The notes beneath the pieces were generated by a model. That model did no database searches and was not told the DNA's origin. It saw only the letters and a list, made by a program, of their open reading frames with translations. Below are positions 3,488 through 57,008 of a stretch of DNA of 64,000 nt, piece by piece (positions within the stretch are counted from its first letter, which is position 1; each line of letters begins with the position of its first letter). The translations under genes and the position numbers were made by a program. Origin of the DNA: Candidatus Limnocylindria bacterium (lineage in GTDB: Bacteria; Chloroflexota; Limnocylindria; QHBO01); assembly GCA_038253355.1 (NCBI GenBank), contig JBBSHF010000001.1, positions 933 through 64,932 of the forward strand. The letters run 5' to 3'.

Positions 3488-3583
3488 GCGAGGTCTATAA
3501 TCCGCTGCAACCAGGCGCGCATCGCGTCGTCGGAGGTCTCAGCCACGGACATCATCTTCCTCGTCGAGCGGCTCGAATCGGTC

Positions 3584-4635: not shown

Positions 4636-4666
4636 TTCGCCAGAGTGCTCGATCGCCGACTATACT
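4636..4666 (+). promoter_or_regulatory. Candidate promoter for rpmF-plsX (-10 TATACT at 4661-4666, followed by GCGGCG)
   Basis: TATACT hexamer with a GC-rich discriminator. Same motif family as the other ribosomal promoters in this window. Confidence 0.35.
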
Positions 4667-5990: not shown

Positions 5991-6431
5991 ATGGCCGCCG
6001 CCCATCGGCCAGTCGAGGACGGTTCGGGGCTGCAGGCACGACGGCTGGCGCTGCTGGCACTCTTCGAGGCCGAGTTCCGTCCGACCCAGGCGAGCGCCGC
6101 GATGGAGCGCCTGGCCGCGGACCGCGATCTCGAGGCCGACATCGTCGAGCATGCTCGACGGATCGTGCAGGGGGTTGCCGAACATCGGCCTGAGCTGGAC
6201 CAGCGGATCGCCGAAGTGGCGCCCGCCATCCCGGTCGCGGAGCTTGGCAAAGTCGAGCGTACGATCCTGCGGAGCGCGCTGTTCGAGGTGCTATACTCCG
6301 CCGCGACCCCGAGCGGGGAGGCGATCAGCGATGCCGTGTCCCTCGCCCGGATCTATGCCGGAGATGCGGCCCGCCGCCTCGTGAACGGCGTCTTGGGGAG
6401 CATTGCTAGATCATCGGGTGGAGGTGTCTGA
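5991..6431 (+). CDS. nusB: NusB-family transcription antitermination protein
   Basis: [28 protein letters not shown] and [12 protein letters not shown] match the NusB helical motifs. Confidence 0.7.
6289..6297 (+). promoter_or_regulatory. Candidate extended -10 promoter (TGcTATACT followed by CCGCCGCG) inside the 3' end of the nusB-like gene, 137 nt upstream of acpP
   Basis: Exact TGcTATACTCCGC motif shared with the rplS and rpsB upstream regions. Confidence 0.35.
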
Positions 6432-11928: not shown

Positions 11929-12028
11929 GGGGCCCGACGCGTTGCCGCTCGACCCGACCGGTAGTAGCATGGGCCGCCGCGCGCCGGTCGCCCGGCGCGA
12001 CTGATTGTCAGCCCGCATCGGTCCACCC

Positions 12029-16819: not shown

Positions 16820-16849
16820 TTGCGACGGCTCCGGCCGCGTTGCTATACT
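16820..16849 (+). promoter_or_regulatory. rplS promoter candidate: -35 TTGCGA (16820-16825), 18-nt spacer, extended -10 TGcTATACT (16841-16849)
   Basis: Near-consensus hexamers, correct spacing, and a CCGC discriminator. Confidence 0.5.
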
Positions 16850-16853
16850 CCGC

Positions 16854-16882
16854 GGCGTCGCGACCGCTGCGGTTGCGACGCC
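16854..16882 (+). promoter_or_regulatory. rplS 5' leader inverted repeat (GGCGTCGCGACC-gctgc-GGTTGCGACGCC), a possible L19 autoregulatory hairpin
   Basis: 12-bp arms with one mismatch, immediately downstream of the -10 and inside a ~115-nt leader. Confidence 0.4.
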
Positions 16883-16966
16883 CCATGTGCGCCTCGGCCA
16901 CGCGGCAGGCACGCTCATGCCATTGGTAAGCCGCGGGTAATGCCGCAGTAATGAGGTCGCCCTAGG

Positions 16967-19572: not shown

Positions 19573-19581
19573 TGCTATACT
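19573..19581 (+). promoter_or_regulatory. rpsB promoter candidate: extended -10 TGcTATACT followed by CCCGC, with a ~180-nt leader
   Basis: Motif identical to the rplS and acpP candidates. Confidence 0.4.
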
Positions 19582-19762
19582 CCCGCTGGCCCGATTCCCG
19601 CGGTTGTACATCGCCGTGCACCCGGATCGGGCGGAATACCCCATTACACACGTCCGCTGATTCGGCGGCCATCGGTGCCCTGACTGCGACCGCGCGTCGC
19701 GCCCGGGTCGGCCGTTTTACGAAGACGACGGCGGGCGGAGGAAAGAACCGGAGGAATCACTC

Positions 19763-20749
19763 ATGGCTGCAGCCAGCATGAAGCAGCTGCTCGAGGCCGG
19801 CGTCCATTTCGGACACCAGACCCGGCGCTGGAACCCGAAGATGCGCGAGTACATCTTCGCCGAGCGCAACGGAATCCACATCATCGACCTGGCACAGACG
19901 GTCACCCGCCTCGACGCGGCGCTCGACTTCATCCGCCAGACGATTCGGCACGGCGATAGCATCCTGTTCGTCGGCACCAAGAAACAGGCCCAGGAATCGT
20001 TGAGGACCGAGGCCGAGCGCAGCGGCCAGCACTACGTCAACAACCGGTGGCTCGGCGGCATGCTGACCAACTTCACGACCATCAAGCGGCGCGTGCAGCG
20101 GCTCGATGCGCTGGAAGCGCGCCGTGACGCGGGCGAGTTCGAGCGGCTGACCAAGAAGGAGGCCAGCAAGCTCACCGAAGAGATCGAGAAGCTCAACCGC
20201 GCGCTGGGCGGCATCCGGCGCATGCGGCGCGTGCCTGGCGCCATGTTCGTGGTCGACCCGCACCGCGAGTCGATCGCGGTCGCCGAGGCGCGACGGCTCG
20301 AGATCCCGATCGTCGCCATCACCGATACGAACTGCGACCCCGATCTCATCGACTGGGTGATCCCCGGCAACGATGACGCGATCCGCGCCGTGAAGCTCAT
20401 CTGCGGCCTGGCCGCCGATGCGGTCCTCGAAGCGCTGCAGGAGCGCCAGTCGCGGCTCGACGAGGAGTTCGAGCAGGCCGAGGCGCTACCGCCGGTCGAC
20501 GAGGCGGCGCTGGCCAACGAGTCCGACTACAGCGCGGCGCTCGCCAGCGGGGAGGCGCTCGTCTTCGAGCCCGAGCCGGAGGAGGACGAGGACGAAGAGC
20601 GTCGCGCTCGTGCTCGCCGCGCTGCCGAGGTCGACGAGATGGACGAGGTGAGCGCAGCGGGCGCGGTGGGCACTGTAGACGAGGTGCCCGCGGAGCCGGC
20701 CGAGAAGGAGCCGGCCGAGAAGGAACCCGCCGAGAAGGAGCCGGCCTGA
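19763..20749 (+). CDS. rpsB: 30S ribosomal protein S2 with an acidic repetitive C-terminal tail
   Basis: [31 protein letters not shown]. Confidence 0.9.
20698..20742 (+). repeat. 3 x 15-bp in-frame tandem repeat (GCCGAGAAGGAGCCG) encoding (AEKEP)3 at the rpsB 3' end
   Basis: Read directly. Confidence 0.6.
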
Positions 20750-26645: not shown

Positions 26646-26675
26646 TTGGCCAAGATCGGCTTCGGCTGGTATACT
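26646..26675 (+). promoter_or_regulatory. nusA-infB operon promoter candidate: -35 TTGGCC (26646-26651), 18-nt spacer, extended -10 TGgTATACT (26667-26675)
   Basis: Read directly. Same -10 family as the other promoters. Confidence 0.45.
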
Positions 26676-33326: not shown

Positions 33327-33335
33327 TGCTAGCAT
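33327..33335 (+). promoter_or_regulatory. rpsO promoter candidate: extended -10 TGcTAGCAT
   Basis: TGn + TAnnnT hexamer, 33 nt upstream of the rpsO GTG start. Confidence 0.35.
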
Positions 33336-45494: not shown

Positions 45495-45522
45495 TTGCAT
45501 AAGCAACCAATGGTGCTATGAT
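45495..45522 (+). promoter_or_regulatory. Pirin promoter: -35 TTGCAT, 16-nt spacer, extended -10 TGcTATGAT. The -10 ends 6 nt before the ATG, so the mRNA is leaderless. Palindrome GTTGCATAAGCAAC overlaps the -35
   Basis: Read directly. Confidence 0.45.
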
Positions 45523-46536: not shown

Positions 46537-47072
46537 CCGAGCTCAACCTGCGGCGGAGGCGGAGGCGGGGGCGGCGGACACGTCGAAATGACCGACCTGG
46601 GCCACGGGTCATCGTCGAGATTGAGGGCCTCATCGTCGGCTATAGCGACCCCACCGAGAGGTGACCGAGGATCGGCCGATTCTCCTCTGCCTCCTGGAGG
46701 GCACCGGCGCAGATTGATCGTGTCCGGATCAAGCTTCGCGGCCTTATGGCTACTGAAGTCAACTCTTCATGGAATCCCGACGGCCTAGTTCCTCATGTTC
46801 CTTGACATGTAAACGCTTTCGGTCCACGATGAAACCGACGGCAACGGTCGCATAGAAGGTTGCTATTCCGCACGAGGTCTGTCGGCTGCGCGCCTCGACG
46901 AGGATTTCGTCCGACCCGACGGTGGACAACTCAACCGATGGTCGGGGCGGATGTGGATGTCTAGCCTCCCTTCTCAGCGGGCGGCAAAGCTCCTCTCGGG
47001 AGAGGAGGCGGTGCGATACGATACGAGATGACACTCCTGAGCGCGCTCCATATGAAGCAGGGAGAGACTCTC

Positions 47073-47498
47073 ATGCGCGTTATGCGGATACTGTTCGGCC
47101 TGTCGCTACTTGCAGCGATGCTCACCGCCTCGCCGGTTGCGGCAGACGGGAGATGCAATGGACAGCGAGGCATCCAGGTTTGGGCCGACTCGGGGTTCTC
47201 GGGAAGCAGCACTGTCTGGTGCCAAAATAATACTGGCGGCATCGCCATACCCGACCTGTCGACTCACCACGAGGGAGGCCAGTGGTGGCCTCAGAGCTGG
47301 AACGACGCGATCAGCTCGTTCCAGACGTTCAACATGTCCAGCACATTGCCCACATGCTTCTATCAAAACAGCAACTATGGCTCGACCTACTGGCGCTATA
47401 ACGGCAACCAGTCGATCCAGTACGTCGGCCTCGATAGGAACGACCAGTTCTCTTCGCTCCTGGTCGCCTGGCCGAAGTACAACTACTGCGGATCGTAG
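47073..47498 (+). CDS. Secreted single-domain beta-gamma crystallin-fold protein (killer-toxin / SMPI-inhibitor-like), in a lower-GC islet
   Basis: Signal peptide MRVMRILFGLSLLAAMLTASPVAADG. Two Greek-key motifs (VWADSGFSGSS...SWNDAISSF and FYQNSNYGS...RNDQFSSLL). Four Cys residues. AGGGAGAG RBS. Confidence 0.6.
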   Translation: MRVMRILFGLSLLAAMLTASPVAADGRCNGQRGIQVWADSGFSGSSTVWCQNNTGGIAIPDLSTHHEGGQWWPQSWNDAISSFQTFNMSSTLPTCFYQNSNYGSTYWRYNGNQSIQYVGLDRNDQFSSLLVAWPKYNYCGS

Positions 47499-47513
47499 AG
47501 GGAACGAACGTTC

Positions 47514-48404: not shown

Positions 48405-49375
48405 TGGCGCGCTCGTTGGCAGCACTTCGAATCTCAGCGAAGCTCGATCGCTTTGAGCTGCTTACCGTGTTGGTGGTAACGGTGGTTGGGCTCGCAGCCG
48501 TGCTGCTTGTCGGGTTGCGCCTCCATTCCTTCGCGCCGAGCGCGCACTGCCAGGAGCTCGTCTGGCGCGGCTTCTCTTCGCAGGATCTGCGCGCATGCCC
48601 AGGCCTCCTGGAATTCGTCCAGTTCGACACTTCGTTCACCGGCAACGCCATGGTTGCCATGAGCGTCGCACCGTTCGCCATCGGAACGCTGCTTGGATCG
48701 CCCCTCGTCGCTCGTGAGATCGATACTGGCACCTCGGAACTGGCCTGGTCGCTCACGGTGTCCCGCACCCGCTGGCTCGTGGGTCGCCTGTTGCCGCTGT
48801 TGGCCGCGGTGCTCCTGGCGTCTCTCATCCTTGGCTTCGCGGCCGAATGGTTAGAGCATGCCCGGTTCTCGGTTGTTCCCCCGGCTGAGAGCTTTCGAGA
48901 CTACGGCAGCCGTGGGCCTCTCCTGGCCGCCCGCGCTCTAACGGCATTCAGCATTGGGATCCTCGTCGGAACTGTCCTGGGCCGAACGGTGCCTGCCCTG
49001 GTGCTGACCGCGGCCGCATGTGTTGTCGTCTATTTCTCGCTTTCAACAGCCGCGCTCGCTCTTCAACCTCTCGAGACGGTAACCACCTCGCAGGCACAAC
49101 AAGATATCGGTGCTCTCAACGTCCGCCTGGCTTGGCGAACGCCCGCTGGCCAAGTGTTGAGTGACGAGCAGGCACGGCGGACGATCCCGGCGAACTCCTC
49201 CGATCCGGAAGCCGCCATCCTCTGGCTGAACGAGCACTACCAGGGCGTCTCGATGATCATTCCGGGCACGCAGATGCCGCGTATGGCGTGGACCGAGTCC
49301 GCGCTCCAAGGTTCGGTTGTGCTGGTGGCTTTCGGAGGCGCGCTGATGCTGGTACGTCGCCGACGACCCTTCTAG
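48401..49375 (+). CDS. ABC-2 type transporter permease
   Basis: About six predicted TM helices. Translationally coupled to the ATPase gene (ATGATG overlap). Confidence 0.6.
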   Translation: MMARSLAALRISAKLDRFELLTVLVVTVVGLAAVLLVGLRLHSFAPSAHCQELVWRGFSSQDLRACPGLLEFVQFDTSFTGNAMVAMSVAPFAIGTLLGSPLVAREIDTGTSELAWSLTVSRTRWLVGRLLPLLAAVLLASLILGFAAEWLEHARFSVVPPAESFRDYGSRGPLLAARALTAFSIGILVGTVLGRTVPALVLTAAACVVVYFSLSTAALALQPLETVTTSQAQQDIGALNVRLAWRTPAGQVLSDEQARRTIPANSSDPEAAILWLNEHYQGVSMIIPGTQMPRMAWTESALQGSVVLVAFGGALMLVRRRRPF

Positions 49376-49582
49376 GGGAATGAGGGTCAACTCGAGGAAG
49401 GCGCTCCATCGTCATGTCGCGCCGTGACCTCGGTTCCCTGGAACGTCACATAACTATCATTTGCGGAAGTAGCATCGCGACACGCGGCTGGGTAGCTCGT
49501 GGGTGCTCCAGGACGAATGGCGAGAGTACCGGGAGCTGATCGGGCGATGGCCGGGCCGGCGTCACCGGCGCAACCTGAGCGC

Positions 49583-49831
49583 ATGACGAATTCATCGCGA
49601 GGTGTGCGCTGGTTCGGCGGCCTGGGGCTGGCGTCCGGCGCGCTGCTCAGCGTTGCGGCGCCGCTGGCCGGTACGGAGCTCGCGGACCTGCTGGGCGGCT
49701 ACGGCACGATGCTGGCGCTCAGCGCTGGATACCTGCTCGGCGGGCTGTGGCTGCTCGGCCTGGGTCACTCTCGGCGCGTCGCGCGCGAGCGGTCGGCGAT
49801 CGCGAACGAGGTGATTTCGATTCGGCGCTGA
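49583..49831 (+). CDS. Small two-TM membrane protein (hypothetical), overlapping the convergent 3' end of the methyltransferase ORF
   Basis: GC3-rich coding-like codon usage and two hydrophobic helices. Uncertain. Confidence 0.3.
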   Translation: MTNSSRGVRWFGGLGLASGALLSVAAPLAGTELADLLGGYGTMLALSAGYLLGGLWLLGLGHSRRVARERSAIANEVISIRR

Positions 49832-50551: not shown

Positions 50552-51889
50552 TCAGCGACGCGCGGAGCGCGTTCCGCCGGGGCGACGACCGGCGGAATCG
50601 AGCTCAGCGGCGATCGCCTGCGGCAGGTGGCCCGAGATGCGAACGCCGCCGGGGAGGTAGTGCTCCTTCACGTCGCCGCTGGTGCGTGCCCGTGCCACGA
50701 GCTCGCCGCGCTCGTACGGGATCAGCGCGTCGACCGCGACCATCTGCTCTCGGAGCACGTTGGCGATCTGCTGCAGCAGGCCGGGCAGGCCCTCGCCGTC
50801 GGCGGCGCTCACGTAGGCGACCCGATCGCTGAGCGGCATCGGCACCCCCTGGCGGGCCACATCGAGGAGGTCGATCTTGCTGAACACCGCGATGCGCGGC
50901 TTGTCGCCGGCGCCCAGCTCGATGAGCACCGCCTGCACGGCTGCCTGCTGGCCCACGAAGTCGGCATCGGCGGCGTCGACCACCTCCAGCAGCAGGTCGG
51001 CGCGCAGCACCTCCTCGAGCGTGGCGCGGAAGGCGTCGATCAGGTCGTGCGGGAGCTTGTTGATGAATCCCACGGTATCGGTCATGACCACGTGCTGGCC
51101 CGAGGGAAGCACCACCCGCCGGGAGGTCGGATCGAGTGTGGCGAATGGCATGTCGGCGGCATATACGTTGGCGTTGGCGAGCGCGTTGAGCAGCGTGCTT
51201 TTCCCGGCATTGGTGTAGCCCACCAGGGCGACCGTGGGTACCTGCTTGCGCTCACGTTGGCGTGCAGCGGTCGACCGATGGCGCTTCACGGTCTCCAGCT
51301 CAGCGCGAAGCCTGCGGATCTTCTCGCCGATCAGCCGCCGGTCGGTCTCGAGCTGGCTCTCGCCGGGTCCCCGGGTACCGATGCCGCCGCCCGTGCGCGA
51401 CAGGTGCGTCCACAGGCGGGTCAGCCGCGGAAGGTGATACTCGAGCTGGGCCAGCTCGACCTGCAGACGGCCCTCGCGGGTGCGCGCGTGGCGGGCGAAG
51501 ATGTCGATGATCAGCGCCGAACGGTCCAGGACCTTGCAGTCGAGCAGCTTTTCCAGGTTGCGCTGCTGATTCGGTGACAGCTCGTCGTCGACAACCAGCA
51601 CGTTGAAGTCGCTGGACGCCTTCTCATCGAGCAGCTCGGCGGCACGGCCCTTGCCGAAGTAGTAGCCGGGATCCGGCTGGGGCCGGCGCTGGAAGGCGCT
51701 GCCCACCACGCTCGCGCCGGCGGTTTCGGCCAGTGAAGCGAGCTCGGCCAGGCTCCGTGAGATCGGCCAGCTGCCGTGGTGTGGGTCGTCGAGCCCGATG
51801 AGAAACGCGCGCTCATCGGCCGCCGTGAGGTCGATCATGCGGTTTGGGTCGGTCATATCGGTCAATTCATGGTAGCCGATGCGGCGCAC
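50552..51889 (-). CDS. hflX: GTPase HflX
   Basis: VALVGYTNAGKSTLLNALA G1 motif, DTVGF, and an HflX N-terminal domain. Start uncertain; alternative M codons lie downstream. Confidence 0.85.
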   Translation of the reverse strand: MRRIGYHELTDMTDPNRMIDLTAADERAFLIGLDDPHHGSWPISRSLAELASLAETAGASVVGSAFQRRPQPDPGYYFGKGRAAELLDEKASSDFNVLVVDDELSPNQQRNLEKLLDCKVLDRSALIIDIFARHARTREGRLQVELAQLEYHLPRLTRLWTHLSRTGGGIGTRGPGESQLETDRRLIGEKIRRLRAELETVKRHRSTAARQRERKQVPTVALVGYTNAGKSTLLNALANANVYAADMPFATLDPTSRRVVLPSGQHVVMTDTVGFINKLPHDLIDAFRATLEEVLRADLLLEVVDAADADFVGQQAAVQAVLIELGAGDKPRIAVFSKIDLLDVARQGVPMPLSDRVAYVSAADGEGLPGLLQQIANVLREQMVAVDALIPYERGELVARARTSGDVKEHYLPGGVRISGHLPQAIAAELDSAGRRPGGTRSARR

Positions 51890-53609: not shown

Positions 53610-54619
53610 CCGTCTCGGTCGACGATCCGCGTCATGAGGCGAAGCGCGCGCCGCACGATGATCTCGGAGCTTGCGTCACGCTCGCTCGCTGCGATCCAGG
53701 TGATGCGTGGGTCGCGGCCGAACCAGGTCAGCTGCCGTTTGGCGTACTGACGGGTGCGGACGACGGTAGCGGCGATTGCCTGCTCCAGGGTCCACTCCCC
53801 CACCAGGTGACGGATCGCCTCAGCGTAGCCATGGCCGCTCATCGATGCCAGCTCGGGACCGTAACCGGCATTCAGCAGCGCGCGCGCCTCGGTGAGGAGG
53901 CCGTGGGCGAACATGAGCCGGGTGCGCTCGGCGATGCGCGCCTCCAGCACCTCGCGCGGTCGCTGCAGCCCGATGAGGCACACACGCCCATCGTACGGCT
54001 CGCTCCCCGGCCGTGCCGTGCTGCCCGACTCGGCTCGCTCCAGGGCACGCAGCACCCGTCGCGGATTGCGCAGGTCCGTGCTGGCCGCGACCTCGGGCGC
54101 CAGCTGGCTCAGGCGTTCGGCGAGCGCCACCAGCCCCATTGACTCGAGCTCATCGGTCAGACGCCGGCGTGCTCCCGCTGATCCGGGCCGGGGTCCGAAG
54201 TCGTAGCCGTCGAGAAGTGCCGAGACGTACAGGCCGGCGCCTCCGACGAGCAGCGGAAGGCGGCCGCGGGCGGCGATCTGTGGGAGGAGGGCTCGGGCGG
54301 GTGCGACCCAGTCCGCGACGGTGAAGCGCTCGTCCGGCGCGACGAGGTCGAGCAGGTGGTGTGGCACCGCTTCTTGCTCGGCGACCGAGGGCTTCGCCGT
54401 TCCGACATCCATGCCGCGGTAGACCTGCCGTGAGTCGGCCGACAGGATCTCGACGGGGATCAGCATGGCGAGCTCCAGGGCCAGCTCGCTCTTGCCCGAG
54501 GCCGTGGGGCCGACGATCGCCAGCAGCGGCAGGGTGTCCGTACTCAGCCGACCTCGACGAGCCGTTGGACGAGCTCGATCGATCGGGCGCGGCCACTCCC
54601 CCGCTCCGCCTCGATGCAC
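53606..54619 (-). CDS. miaA: tRNA dimethylallyltransferase MiaA
   Basis: LLAIVGPTASGKSELALELA P-loop; SADSRQVYRGMDVGTAKP. Start uncertain; the ORF 5' end overlaps the ymdB 3' end. Confidence 0.85.
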   Translation of the reverse strand: MHRGGAGEWPRPIDRARPTARRGRLSTDTLPLLAIVGPTASGKSELALELAMLIPVEILSADSRQVYRGMDVGTAKPSVAEQEAVPHHLLDLVAPDERFTVADWVAPARALLPQIAARGRLPLLVGGAGLYVSALLDGYDFGPRPGSAGARRRLTDELESMGLVALAERLSQLAPEVAASTDLRNPRRVLRALERAESGSTARPGSEPYDGRVCLIGLQRPREVLEARIAERTRLMFAHGLLTEARALLNAGYGPELASMSGHGYAEAIRHLVGEWTLEQAIAATVVRTRQYAKRQLTWFGRDPRITWIAASERDASSEIIVRRALRLMTRIVDRDG

Positions 54620-56885: not shown

Positions 56886-57008
56886 CGGCTCCTCCGGTCG
56901 ATGGAGCCCGTATGGGCGATGTGCACCCGGTCGGGCGCGTCAGGTACTTCAATCAGGCGGCGGGTCGACCGGTTGCGCGTGCCTCTCAGCCGACCGAACC
57001 TTTGGCGG

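Follow-up and report, generated by a model that had tools for sequence, protein, structure and literature searches.

The short element TGnTATACT, which recurs upstream of genes in a 64,000-nt stretch of contig JBBSHF010000001.1 (hereafter the window), very probably forms the extended -10 region of promoters read by the primary, sigma-70/SigA-type sigma factor of the class Limnocylindria. The source organism is an uncultured member of this class of Chloroflexota, and the window has a G+C content of 69%. A first-pass annotation had described the element before rplS and a series of other genes and had proposed that it defines the housekeeping promoter of the organism. The type of promoter is supported by phylogenetic footprints, by orientation, by -35 hexamers, by the rare codons that encode the element inside genes and by its avoidance in coding DNA; the wider part of the proposal is not, as TATACT does not define all housekeeping promoters.

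When the window is searched directly, each of the sites cited in that annotation is present with the sequence and position given for it (Table 1), and the three -35 hexamers that it named (TTGCGA, TTGGCC and TTGCAT) are likewise in place with the spacers claimed. To estimate the frequency expected by chance, 2000 dinucleotide-preserving shuffles of the window were generated. TATACT occurs six times in the window against 0.74 expected, TGNTATACT four times against 0.049, TATACTCC three times against 0.083 and TGCTATACTCCGC twice against 0.001, and these counts were matched in none of the 2000 shuffles; that the element is very unlikely to have arisen by chance was therefore rightly stated. Five of the TATACT copies lie on the plus strand, 37-200 nt upstream of rpmF, acpP, rplS, rpsB and nusA and co-oriented with them, and the sixth (60046-60041, minus strand) had been overlooked. 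A TG precedes the hexamer at four of the six sites, and also at the sites upstream of rpsO and of a pirin-family gene.

For comparison we collected 80 related loci (L001-L080) by a homolog search with L19, taking one genome per species. Nearly all come from metagenome-assembled genomes, and their labels read Candidatus Limnocylindria, Limnocylindrales or Chloroflexota; L19 identities reach at most 93%. Together the loci comprise 1.27 Mb, of which 91% was called coding and 9% intergenic. Extra loci for the rny region were obtained via RNase Y homologs, and for rpmF and acpP via PlsX homologs. The 1.27 Mb contain 118 copies of TATACT on the two strands: 114 are intergenic, four are in the coding sense (three of these being the acpP promoter inside nusB) and none is antisense. 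For 111 of the 114 intergenic copies, a gene in the same orientation lies no more than 300 nt away. Sorted by downstream ortholog, the copies belong to rplS (68, plus two mis-assigned to the next gene), rpsB (30), nusA (12) and acpP (3), with a further three at contig ends. No TATACT was found elsewhere in this DNA, and so complete a lack is informative despite the non-independence of the orthologous sites. Avoidance was then measured by shuffling codon order within the called genes of these loci, which are related to one another. Antisense TATACT, expected 16.9 times in coding DNA (standard deviation 3.8), was observed not once, and the general class TANNNT, avoided on both strands, reaches a mere third of what the codon shuffles predict (0.33), against 0.74 for TANNNV and 0.95 for both VANNNT and TBNNNT. 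The avoidance is specific to T1, A2 and T6 and exceeds the general avoidance of TA, as selection against spurious -10 elements would produce.

The footprints at individual genes define the element more closely. At rplS, where the -10 lies 117 nt upstream of the gene, 76 distinct orthologous sites were aligned on the hexamer, which is TATACT in 71 of them; the triplet before it is TGC in 62 and TGn in 70, and the five bases after it are CCGCC in 39, with the CC conserved to at least 80%. Information content is limited to TGCTATACTCC, an 11-nt conserved island, and positions further out are at background. In the close relatives L001-L042 the -35 of rplS is TTGCCG, also with an 18-nt spacer. Among 58 rpsB orthologs the hexamer is TATACT in 32, TAGACT in 15 and TACACT in 9, which can be written as TGnTA[T/G/C]ACT; TGn is kept in 54, and the discriminator is variable and carries nearly no information. 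The TG that had been claimed for the element is conserved at these two promoters. TATACT is present in 12 of 13 nusA orthologs, and here some 110 nt separate the -10 from what is probably the true start, ATG 26785, which we prefer because the match to the NusA family starts at residue 36 of the long open reading frame (ORF).

Two of the sites lie within coding sequence, where the codons used offer a further line of evidence. The acpP element is read in nusB as GTG CTA TAC TCC, and CTA accounts for only 14 of 2030 leucine codons (0.7%) in the genes of the window. L030, L037, L041, L209-L212 and seven metagenome contigs all carry the identical 14-mer at this site, with variation at nearby synonymous positions, and GAGGTGCTATACTCCGCCGCGA is found in five of five species among the PlsX-homolog loci. 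In the 3' end of tgt, TATACT is kept in seven of seven species by way of the disfavoured codons TAT and ACT, and again the adjacent synonymous sites vary. This site is about 190 nt upstream of a conserved 52-amino-acid ORF (59853-59695, minus strand), itself located before recA, and we regard it as a less certain internal promoter, to whose conservation constraint on the protein motif HNxTYTLDLM contributes. The protein encoded by the small ORF is rich in lysine and arginine (MGSRDRPRRQEKRKPKEK...) and has no Pfam match; the ORF is publicly annotated in all six relatives and was overlooked by our codon-usage caller. Upstream of rpmF, TATACT and the discriminator GCGGCGTCC are kept in five of five species, and the sequence upstream of them is not.

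Other genes carry the related hexamers TATAAT, TACACT, TAGAAT/TAGCAT, TATGAT and TACCAT, and across all footprints T1, A2 and T6 are invariant; TATACT itself agrees with TATAAT at five of six positions. Counted upstream of genes in the related loci, the hexamers are TATACT (about 111), TAGACT (44), TAGCAT (42), TAGAAT (31), TACACT (24) and TATAAT (3). For ffh, the last upstream TANNNT in 65 orthologs is TAGAAT or TAGCAT in 33 and TACACT in 11, with none found in 18, and most of 22 close relatives have TTGCCG or a close variant, a spacer of 17-18 nt, TAGAAT or TAGCAT and then GGGCAGCC. The ffh promoter (11942-11978, plus strand) thereby has a G-rich discriminator behind its TTGCCG -35, in contrast with the C-rich discriminators of rplS and acpP. 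The TACACT of rny, which encodes RNase Y, is kept in seven of seven species. A T at -17 and a G at -16 are also kept while the flanks diverge; six of the seven species have TGCGC before the hexamer and L207 has TGGGG, so that this TG, at -17/-16, is not at the extended -10 place. TATAAT upstream of the gene that follows coaD is kept in five of five species. At hflX, GGCTACCAT is common to the window, L203, L204 and L205, and L208 has CGCTACCAT, L206 TAGGAT and L207 TACTAT at this position. TTGACC, a 16-nt spacer and TAGCAT lie upstream of the divergent LysM/SLT gene. A TTGnnn -35 is conserved at rplS (in close relatives), ffh, the pirin-family gene and nusA, at spacings of 16-18 nt. The relatives retrieved for the candidate rpsO promoter had 100% identical DNA only; exact-protein look-ups with S15 and L19 likewise returned only same-species contigs with identical DNA, and no transcript-like contigs.

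An own promoter for rpsP was considered and rejected, as the search for a conserved TANNNT gave none. rpsP really starts at a TTG 33 nt upstream of the first call; the gene directly follows the one before it and is probably co-transcribed from the ffh promoter. The association with the translation apparatus that the first-pass annotation had seen is partial: it holds for rplS, rpsB, nusA and rpmF, but acpP and the tgt/recA site have TATACT too, rpsO carries TAGCAT instead, and a separate promoter is missing at rpsP.

The position of start codons relative to TANNNT indicates where transcription would begin. In four of 60 window genes, exactly 6 nt separate TANNNT from the start codon, and the 54 other distances examined share only seven matches among them (about 0.2 per distance). 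This spacing agrees with the TANNNT signal described for leaderless mRNAs, whose first base lies some 12 nt ahead of the initiation codon (Zheng et al. 2011, PMC3160421). At the pirin-family gene, assigned by its pirin domains, L205 keeps TTGCAT, the 16-nt spacer, TGGTATCAT, the 6 nt and the ATG; at queA, TA(G/C)CAT, 6 nt and ATG are found in all four species with a correctly called start; and for a luciferase-like gene (58009-57995, minus strand) the arrangement is kept in four of seven species. Genes with this arrangement probably form a class with leaderless mRNAs, conserved at queA and at the pirin-family gene. A hexamer 6 nt before ATG would place the start at the seventh base after the hexamer, the A of ATG, which is canonical sigma-70 geometry. 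The candidate at rnc (TAGCAT, 6 nt, ATG 6674) was rejected, being kept in two of the five species of the L209-L212 comparison; at this position L030, L037 and L041 have TAGGTT, 6 nt and GTG, and the TAG in the window is the stop codon of acpP.

Taken together with the known anatomy of E. coli promoters, these features suggest a mechanism. Region 2 of sigma would capture the A at position 2 and the T at position 6 of TATACT, the TG one base upstream would make the extended -10 contact with region 3.0, a TTGCCG-like -35 would, where present, lie 16-18 nt upstream, and transcription would begin about 7 nt after the hexamer. By the same analogy, the TG contact would let promoters such as rpsB function with no recognisable -35. 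TATACT with TG, presumably the strongest form because it is closest to consensus, stands before highly expressed genes (those for L19, S2, L32, NusA and ACP), and less expressed genes keep variants that are presumably weaker and differ from gene to gene, among them TACACT, TAGAAT/TAGCAT and TACCAT. The gene for the primary sigma factor lies outside the window. Anatomy, statistics, conservation and avoidance in coding DNA are thus seen in the sequences themselves, and binding by sigma, start sites and promoter strength are inferred.

Several observations weigh against the assignment to the primary sigma factor. The loose pattern TGNTANNNT is not enriched across the window (nine matches against 10.4 expected), although seven of the nine are in promoter-like positions; we therefore take the signal to consist of the specific hexamer and its placement, and have dropped the notion that any TG with TANNNT is informative by itself. 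TG is lacking upstream of rpmF, before the TATAAT hexamer and at the site within tgt. No -35 is recognisable at rpsB, either in the window or in the 58 orthologs, or in the more distant group of aligned rplS orthologs; promoters of the extended -10 class can lack it, but at rpmF both TG and a good -35 are missing. The sites inside tgt and nusB are under protein-coding constraint as well. Finally, the gene calls are home-made, which makes the counts of intergenic sites and of coding avoidance approximate, and the orthologous sites are not independent observations.

The distribution of the element beyond Limnocylindria bears on whether a different factor might be responsible. An exact scan of metagenome contigs from many phyla for the 14-mer TGCTATACTCCGCC gave a sample of at least 120 contigs. 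ORF class counts for these contigs were discarded, since high-GC rplS promoters were mis-scored as antisense coding, and only the identity of the downstream gene was used. Among the matches listed, the contigs range from 33 to 74% GC, many have a TTGACA-like hexamer 17 nt upstream, and in at least five the 14-mer lies just upstream of a tRNA gene. The 37 listed matches at 66% GC or more include about 15 contigs with identifiable Limnocylindria sites, which are the rplS and nusB/acpP promoters. The presence of the 14-mer across lineages, behind TTGACA and before genes and tRNAs, marks it as a generic sigma-70 signal, and the predominance of rplS and acpP among the listed high-GC matches, with no wide regulon, indicates that the identity of the 14-mer at rplS and acpP reflects two promoters near one optimum and not a dispersed repeat. 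A separate family of non-Limnocylindria contigs at 55-59% GC (L089, L095, L105, L111, L120, L147, L168 and L182) has the 14-mer behind an AT-rich tract. Downstream, these contigs share a 'taccccttg(g)c' block, which is conserved, and encode a small membrane protein (..LYLL..W..T..F..L..WRS.L.SHEDD); the arrangement looks like a conserved strong promoter of another phylum.

Recognition by a sigma factor other than the primary one, or use of the motif as operator by a transcription factor devoted to ribosomal-protein genes, could account for conservation that spans 11-14 nt at rplS and acpP and so exceeds a minimal -10. We consider this very unlikely, given that the motif is one base off the textbook TGnTATAAT, serves core housekeeping genes and has no dyad symmetry, that TATAAT and other TANNNT variants hold the same position at other genes, and that in unrelated phyla the 14-mer follows TTGACA after 17 nt and the TANNNT class is avoided in coding DNA of the related loci.

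The same question can be asked of the RNA downstream of the rplS promoter. With a start site predicted at about 16855-16857, the rplS leader of 118 nt holds two hairpins (Table 1). Nearly all of 42 close relatives retain the stem pairs of the first, at the 5' end, a kept G.U pair included; its conservation is mostly at the level of sequence, with changes on both sides at one pair only, and the wobble pair speaks for pairing in the RNA. The second has weak to moderate support, with 89% of cells paired and one pair that shows a compensatory GC to CG change in four sequences. Covariation in the leader as a whole is thin (two pairs changed on both sides), and it is conjecture that they represent a 5' hairpin with a stabilising role and an autoregulatory leader for L19, possibly an undescribed one. 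Conserved hairpins directly after the rplS site might suggest that the element is itself part of a transcribed RNA, such as a leader or riboswitch-like structure. However, no Rfam family matched anywhere in the window, either at gathering scores or at E<=5, the motif has no conserved pairing partner and unconserved flanks, and it lies inside nusB and before unrelated genes. With the shuffles and the lack of antisense copies in 1.27 Mb also speaking against a chance or compositional artefact, we give these two explanations together next to no weight, less even than an alternative sigma factor or operator. Promoters of the primary sigma factor remain the reading that we adopt.

Repeats containing GTAA (GGTAAGccgcgGGTAATgccgcaGTAATgagg, gGTAAGTAAGccgccaGTAACggcccgGTAAGg) occur in the rplS leader (16925-16960, plus strand) and in the tgt-recA spacer (about 59930-59890, minus strand), and are kept in relatives. 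TAAGCC, GTAAGC and GGTAAG show a strong sense bias upstream of genes across the 80 loci. These repeats could form hairpin loops, supply stop codons in more than one frame or bind a protein.

Whether these primary-sigma promoters also form a regulatory class turns on the discriminator. In E. coli rRNA promoters, a C two bases after the -10 gives short-lived open complexes that are sensitive to guanosine tetraphosphate (ppGpp) and to the initiating nucleoside triphosphate; Haugen and colleagues reportedly described the role of the base at this position at those promoters in 2006. By extension, TGCTATACT with the C-rich CCGCC might mark a co-regulated class of growth-rate or stringent promoters for the translation apparatus. 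At rplS the conserved CC would fit, as would the second C at nusA (at least 80%); in the window, the hexamers of acpP, rplS, rny and the TATAAT promoter are all followed by CCGC, although the expectation for any one tetramer is about 1.5%; ffh keeps the opposite, G-rich GGGCAGCC; and the exact 14-mer also precedes tRNA genes elsewhere. On the other hand, GC-rich discriminators are the default because the genome has 69% G+C, and the discriminator is nearly free of information at rpsB, GCGGC at rpmF and TCGCT at nusA. The discriminator bases at acpP double as the codons TCC GCC, rny and the gene behind the TATAAT promoter are not translation genes, rpsO lacks the element, and the high-GC matches to the 14-mer, among those listed, come mostly from two promoters, rplS and acpP, and show no large regulon. 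A stringent class is accordingly possible, but we regard it as doubtful. Of the CCGC discriminator that had been described as part of the element, conservation at rplS and acpP can be retained; at rpsB it is weak, ffh has GGGC, and rpmF and nusA deviate as described.

A more far-reaching idea, to which we assign a somewhat lower likelihood still, is that two promoter designs have been held apart over the long term in Limnocylindria, with the discriminator acting as the growth-rate or stringent switch. The first would be TGCTATACT with a C-rich discriminator before ribosomal-protein genes, nusA, acpP and, in other lineages, tRNA genes; the second would be TTGCCG, 17 nt, TAGAAT and GGGCAGCC before genes such as ffh. 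If true, this would mean that selection on the discriminator is strong enough to hold rare codons within nusB and tgt in a slow-growing soil lineage.

Compared with known systems, the Limnocylindria promoters resemble the E. coli sigma-70 extended -10 class (TGnTATAAT) in the TG one base before TAnnnT, in a -35 that is dispensable (rpsB), in spacers of 16-18 nt and in a hexamer at -12 to -7 of the inferred start. They differ in that position 5 is C, with about 111 upstream TATACT against three TATAAT, and in a GC-shifted -35 (TTGCCG) with a common spacer of 18 nt. Promoters of the high-GC Actinobacteria and Deinococcus-Thermus have TANNNT, a weak or absent -35 and frequent TGn, and many of the mRNAs are leaderless. 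Like these, the Limnocylindria sites have only T1, A2 and T6 in common, belong to a GC-rich genome and include probable leaderless genes with TANNNT 12 nt before the start; unlike them, they come from the phylum Chloroflexota, strong promoters have constrained middle positions, and each promoter keeps its hexamer variant across species. TANNNT, a weak -35, TGn and leaderless mRNAs are features widespread in Terrabacteria of high GC content. The E. coli stringent promoters of rRNA and ribosomal-protein genes are matched by CCGCC after the -10 at rplS and acpP, by the translation genes downstream and by the contrast with the G-rich ffh, but not by rpsB and rpmF, where the discriminator is not conserved, and at 69% GC a GC-rich discriminator is uninformative.

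In the literature we found no description of Limnocylindria promoters and no report of TATACT in Chloroflexi. The promoter model is new for the lineage, and the kind of element is textbook; the general concept of bacterial promoter function is unchanged. What is gained is a comparatively validated model (-10 TANNNT, strongest as TGCTATACT; -35 TTGCCG at 16-18 nt; start about 7 nt downstream) for an abundant, uncultured class of Chloroflexota from soil and freshwater. It aids the annotation of operons and start codons, several of which were revised here, and of leaderless genes and promoters embedded in coding sequences, and could inform the design of expression parts once a member of the class is in culture.

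Table 1. Promoter elements, rplS leader hairpins and revised start codons in the window.
Feature	Position	Strand	Description
TATAAT promoter	3496-3501	+	-10 TATAAT, then CCGC; upstream of the gene after coaD (~3584)
rpmF promoter	4661-4666	+	-10 TATACT without TG; discriminator GCGGCGTCC; 37 nt upstream of L32 ORF 4704-4907
acpP promoter	6289-6297	+	TGCTATACT, then CCGCC; within nusB coding sequence; acpP start 137 nt downstream
ffh promoter	11942-11970	+	TTGCCG, 17 nt, TAGCAT, G-rich discriminator GGGCC
rpsP revised start	14994	+	TTG; differs from longest or best-scoring ORF
rplS -35	16820-16825	+	TTGCGA; 18-nt spacer to -10
rplS extended -10	16841-16849	+	TGCTATACT; TG 16841-16842, hexamer 16844-16849; then discriminator CCGCGG
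rplS 5'-end hairpin	16857-16879	+	GUCGCGACC-GCUGC-GGUUGCGAC; 9 bp, one G.U pair
Second rplS leader hairpin	16933-16946	+	Just upstream of Shine-Dalgarno GAGG 16953-16956 and ATG 16967
rpsB extended -10	19573-19581	+	TGCTATACT; 196 nt upstream; 5' untranslated region ~190 nt
nusA promoter	26646-26675	+	-35 TTGGCC 26646-26651, 18-nt spacer, TGGTATACT 26667-26675
nusA revised start	26785	+	ATG, likely; differs from longest or best-scoring ORF
rpsO candidate promoter	33327-33335	+	TGCTAGCAT (TAGCAT); 32 nt upstream of start
rpsO revised start	33368	+	GTG; public gene calls agree
Pirin-family promoter	45495-45522	+	TTGCAT 45495-45500, 16 nt, TGCTATGAT 45514-45522, 6 nt, ATG 45529
hflX hexamer	51869-51874	-	TACCAT; 12 nt upstream of revised ATG
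hflX revised start	51856	-	ATG; differs from longest or best-scoring ORF
rny -10	57014-57009	-	TACACT; discriminator CCGCC
tgt-internal site	60046-60041	-	TATACT in 3' end of tgt; candidate internal promoter
tgt start	~61271	-	Probably upstream of GTG 61063
queA promoter	63108-63103	-	TAGCAT, 6 nt, then ATG 63096; probably leaderless

Two 5' untranslated regions other than that of rplS contain conserved blocks. In rpsB (19582-19777, plus strand) a block cccatcacacacgctcg is common to many close relatives and has no Rfam match. Just before the start codon of rny, a block at 56886-56940 (minus strand; about 9940-10000 in L203-L208) is near-invariant in seven species (gcacatcgcccata-gggctccatcgaccggaggagccgATG) and may be a regulatory element of RNase Y. 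As no Rfam family matched, the leaders of rplS, rpsB, nusA, pnp and infB fall outside described RNA families.

The gene map of the window was built by codon-usage scoring, and key genes were checked against NCBIfam. It comprises a yceD-like gene, rpmF, plsX, nusB, acpP, rnc, smc and ftsY; ffh, a DUF3352 gene, rpsP, a KH-domain gene, rimM and trmD; rplS and rnhB; rpsB, tsf, pyrH and frr; and nusA, infB, rbfA, truB, ribF, rpsO and pnp. On the minus strand are queA, tgt, recA, recX, rny, ymdB and hflX. Three stretches of about 1 kb each (46537-47513, 48405-49718 and 53610-54543) have no gene that passes the codon-usage caller, and two of them have a lower G+C content (0.60-0.65). These stretches may hold atypical or foreign genes; that at 53610-54543 is probably miaA, as judged by synteny with L203-L208.

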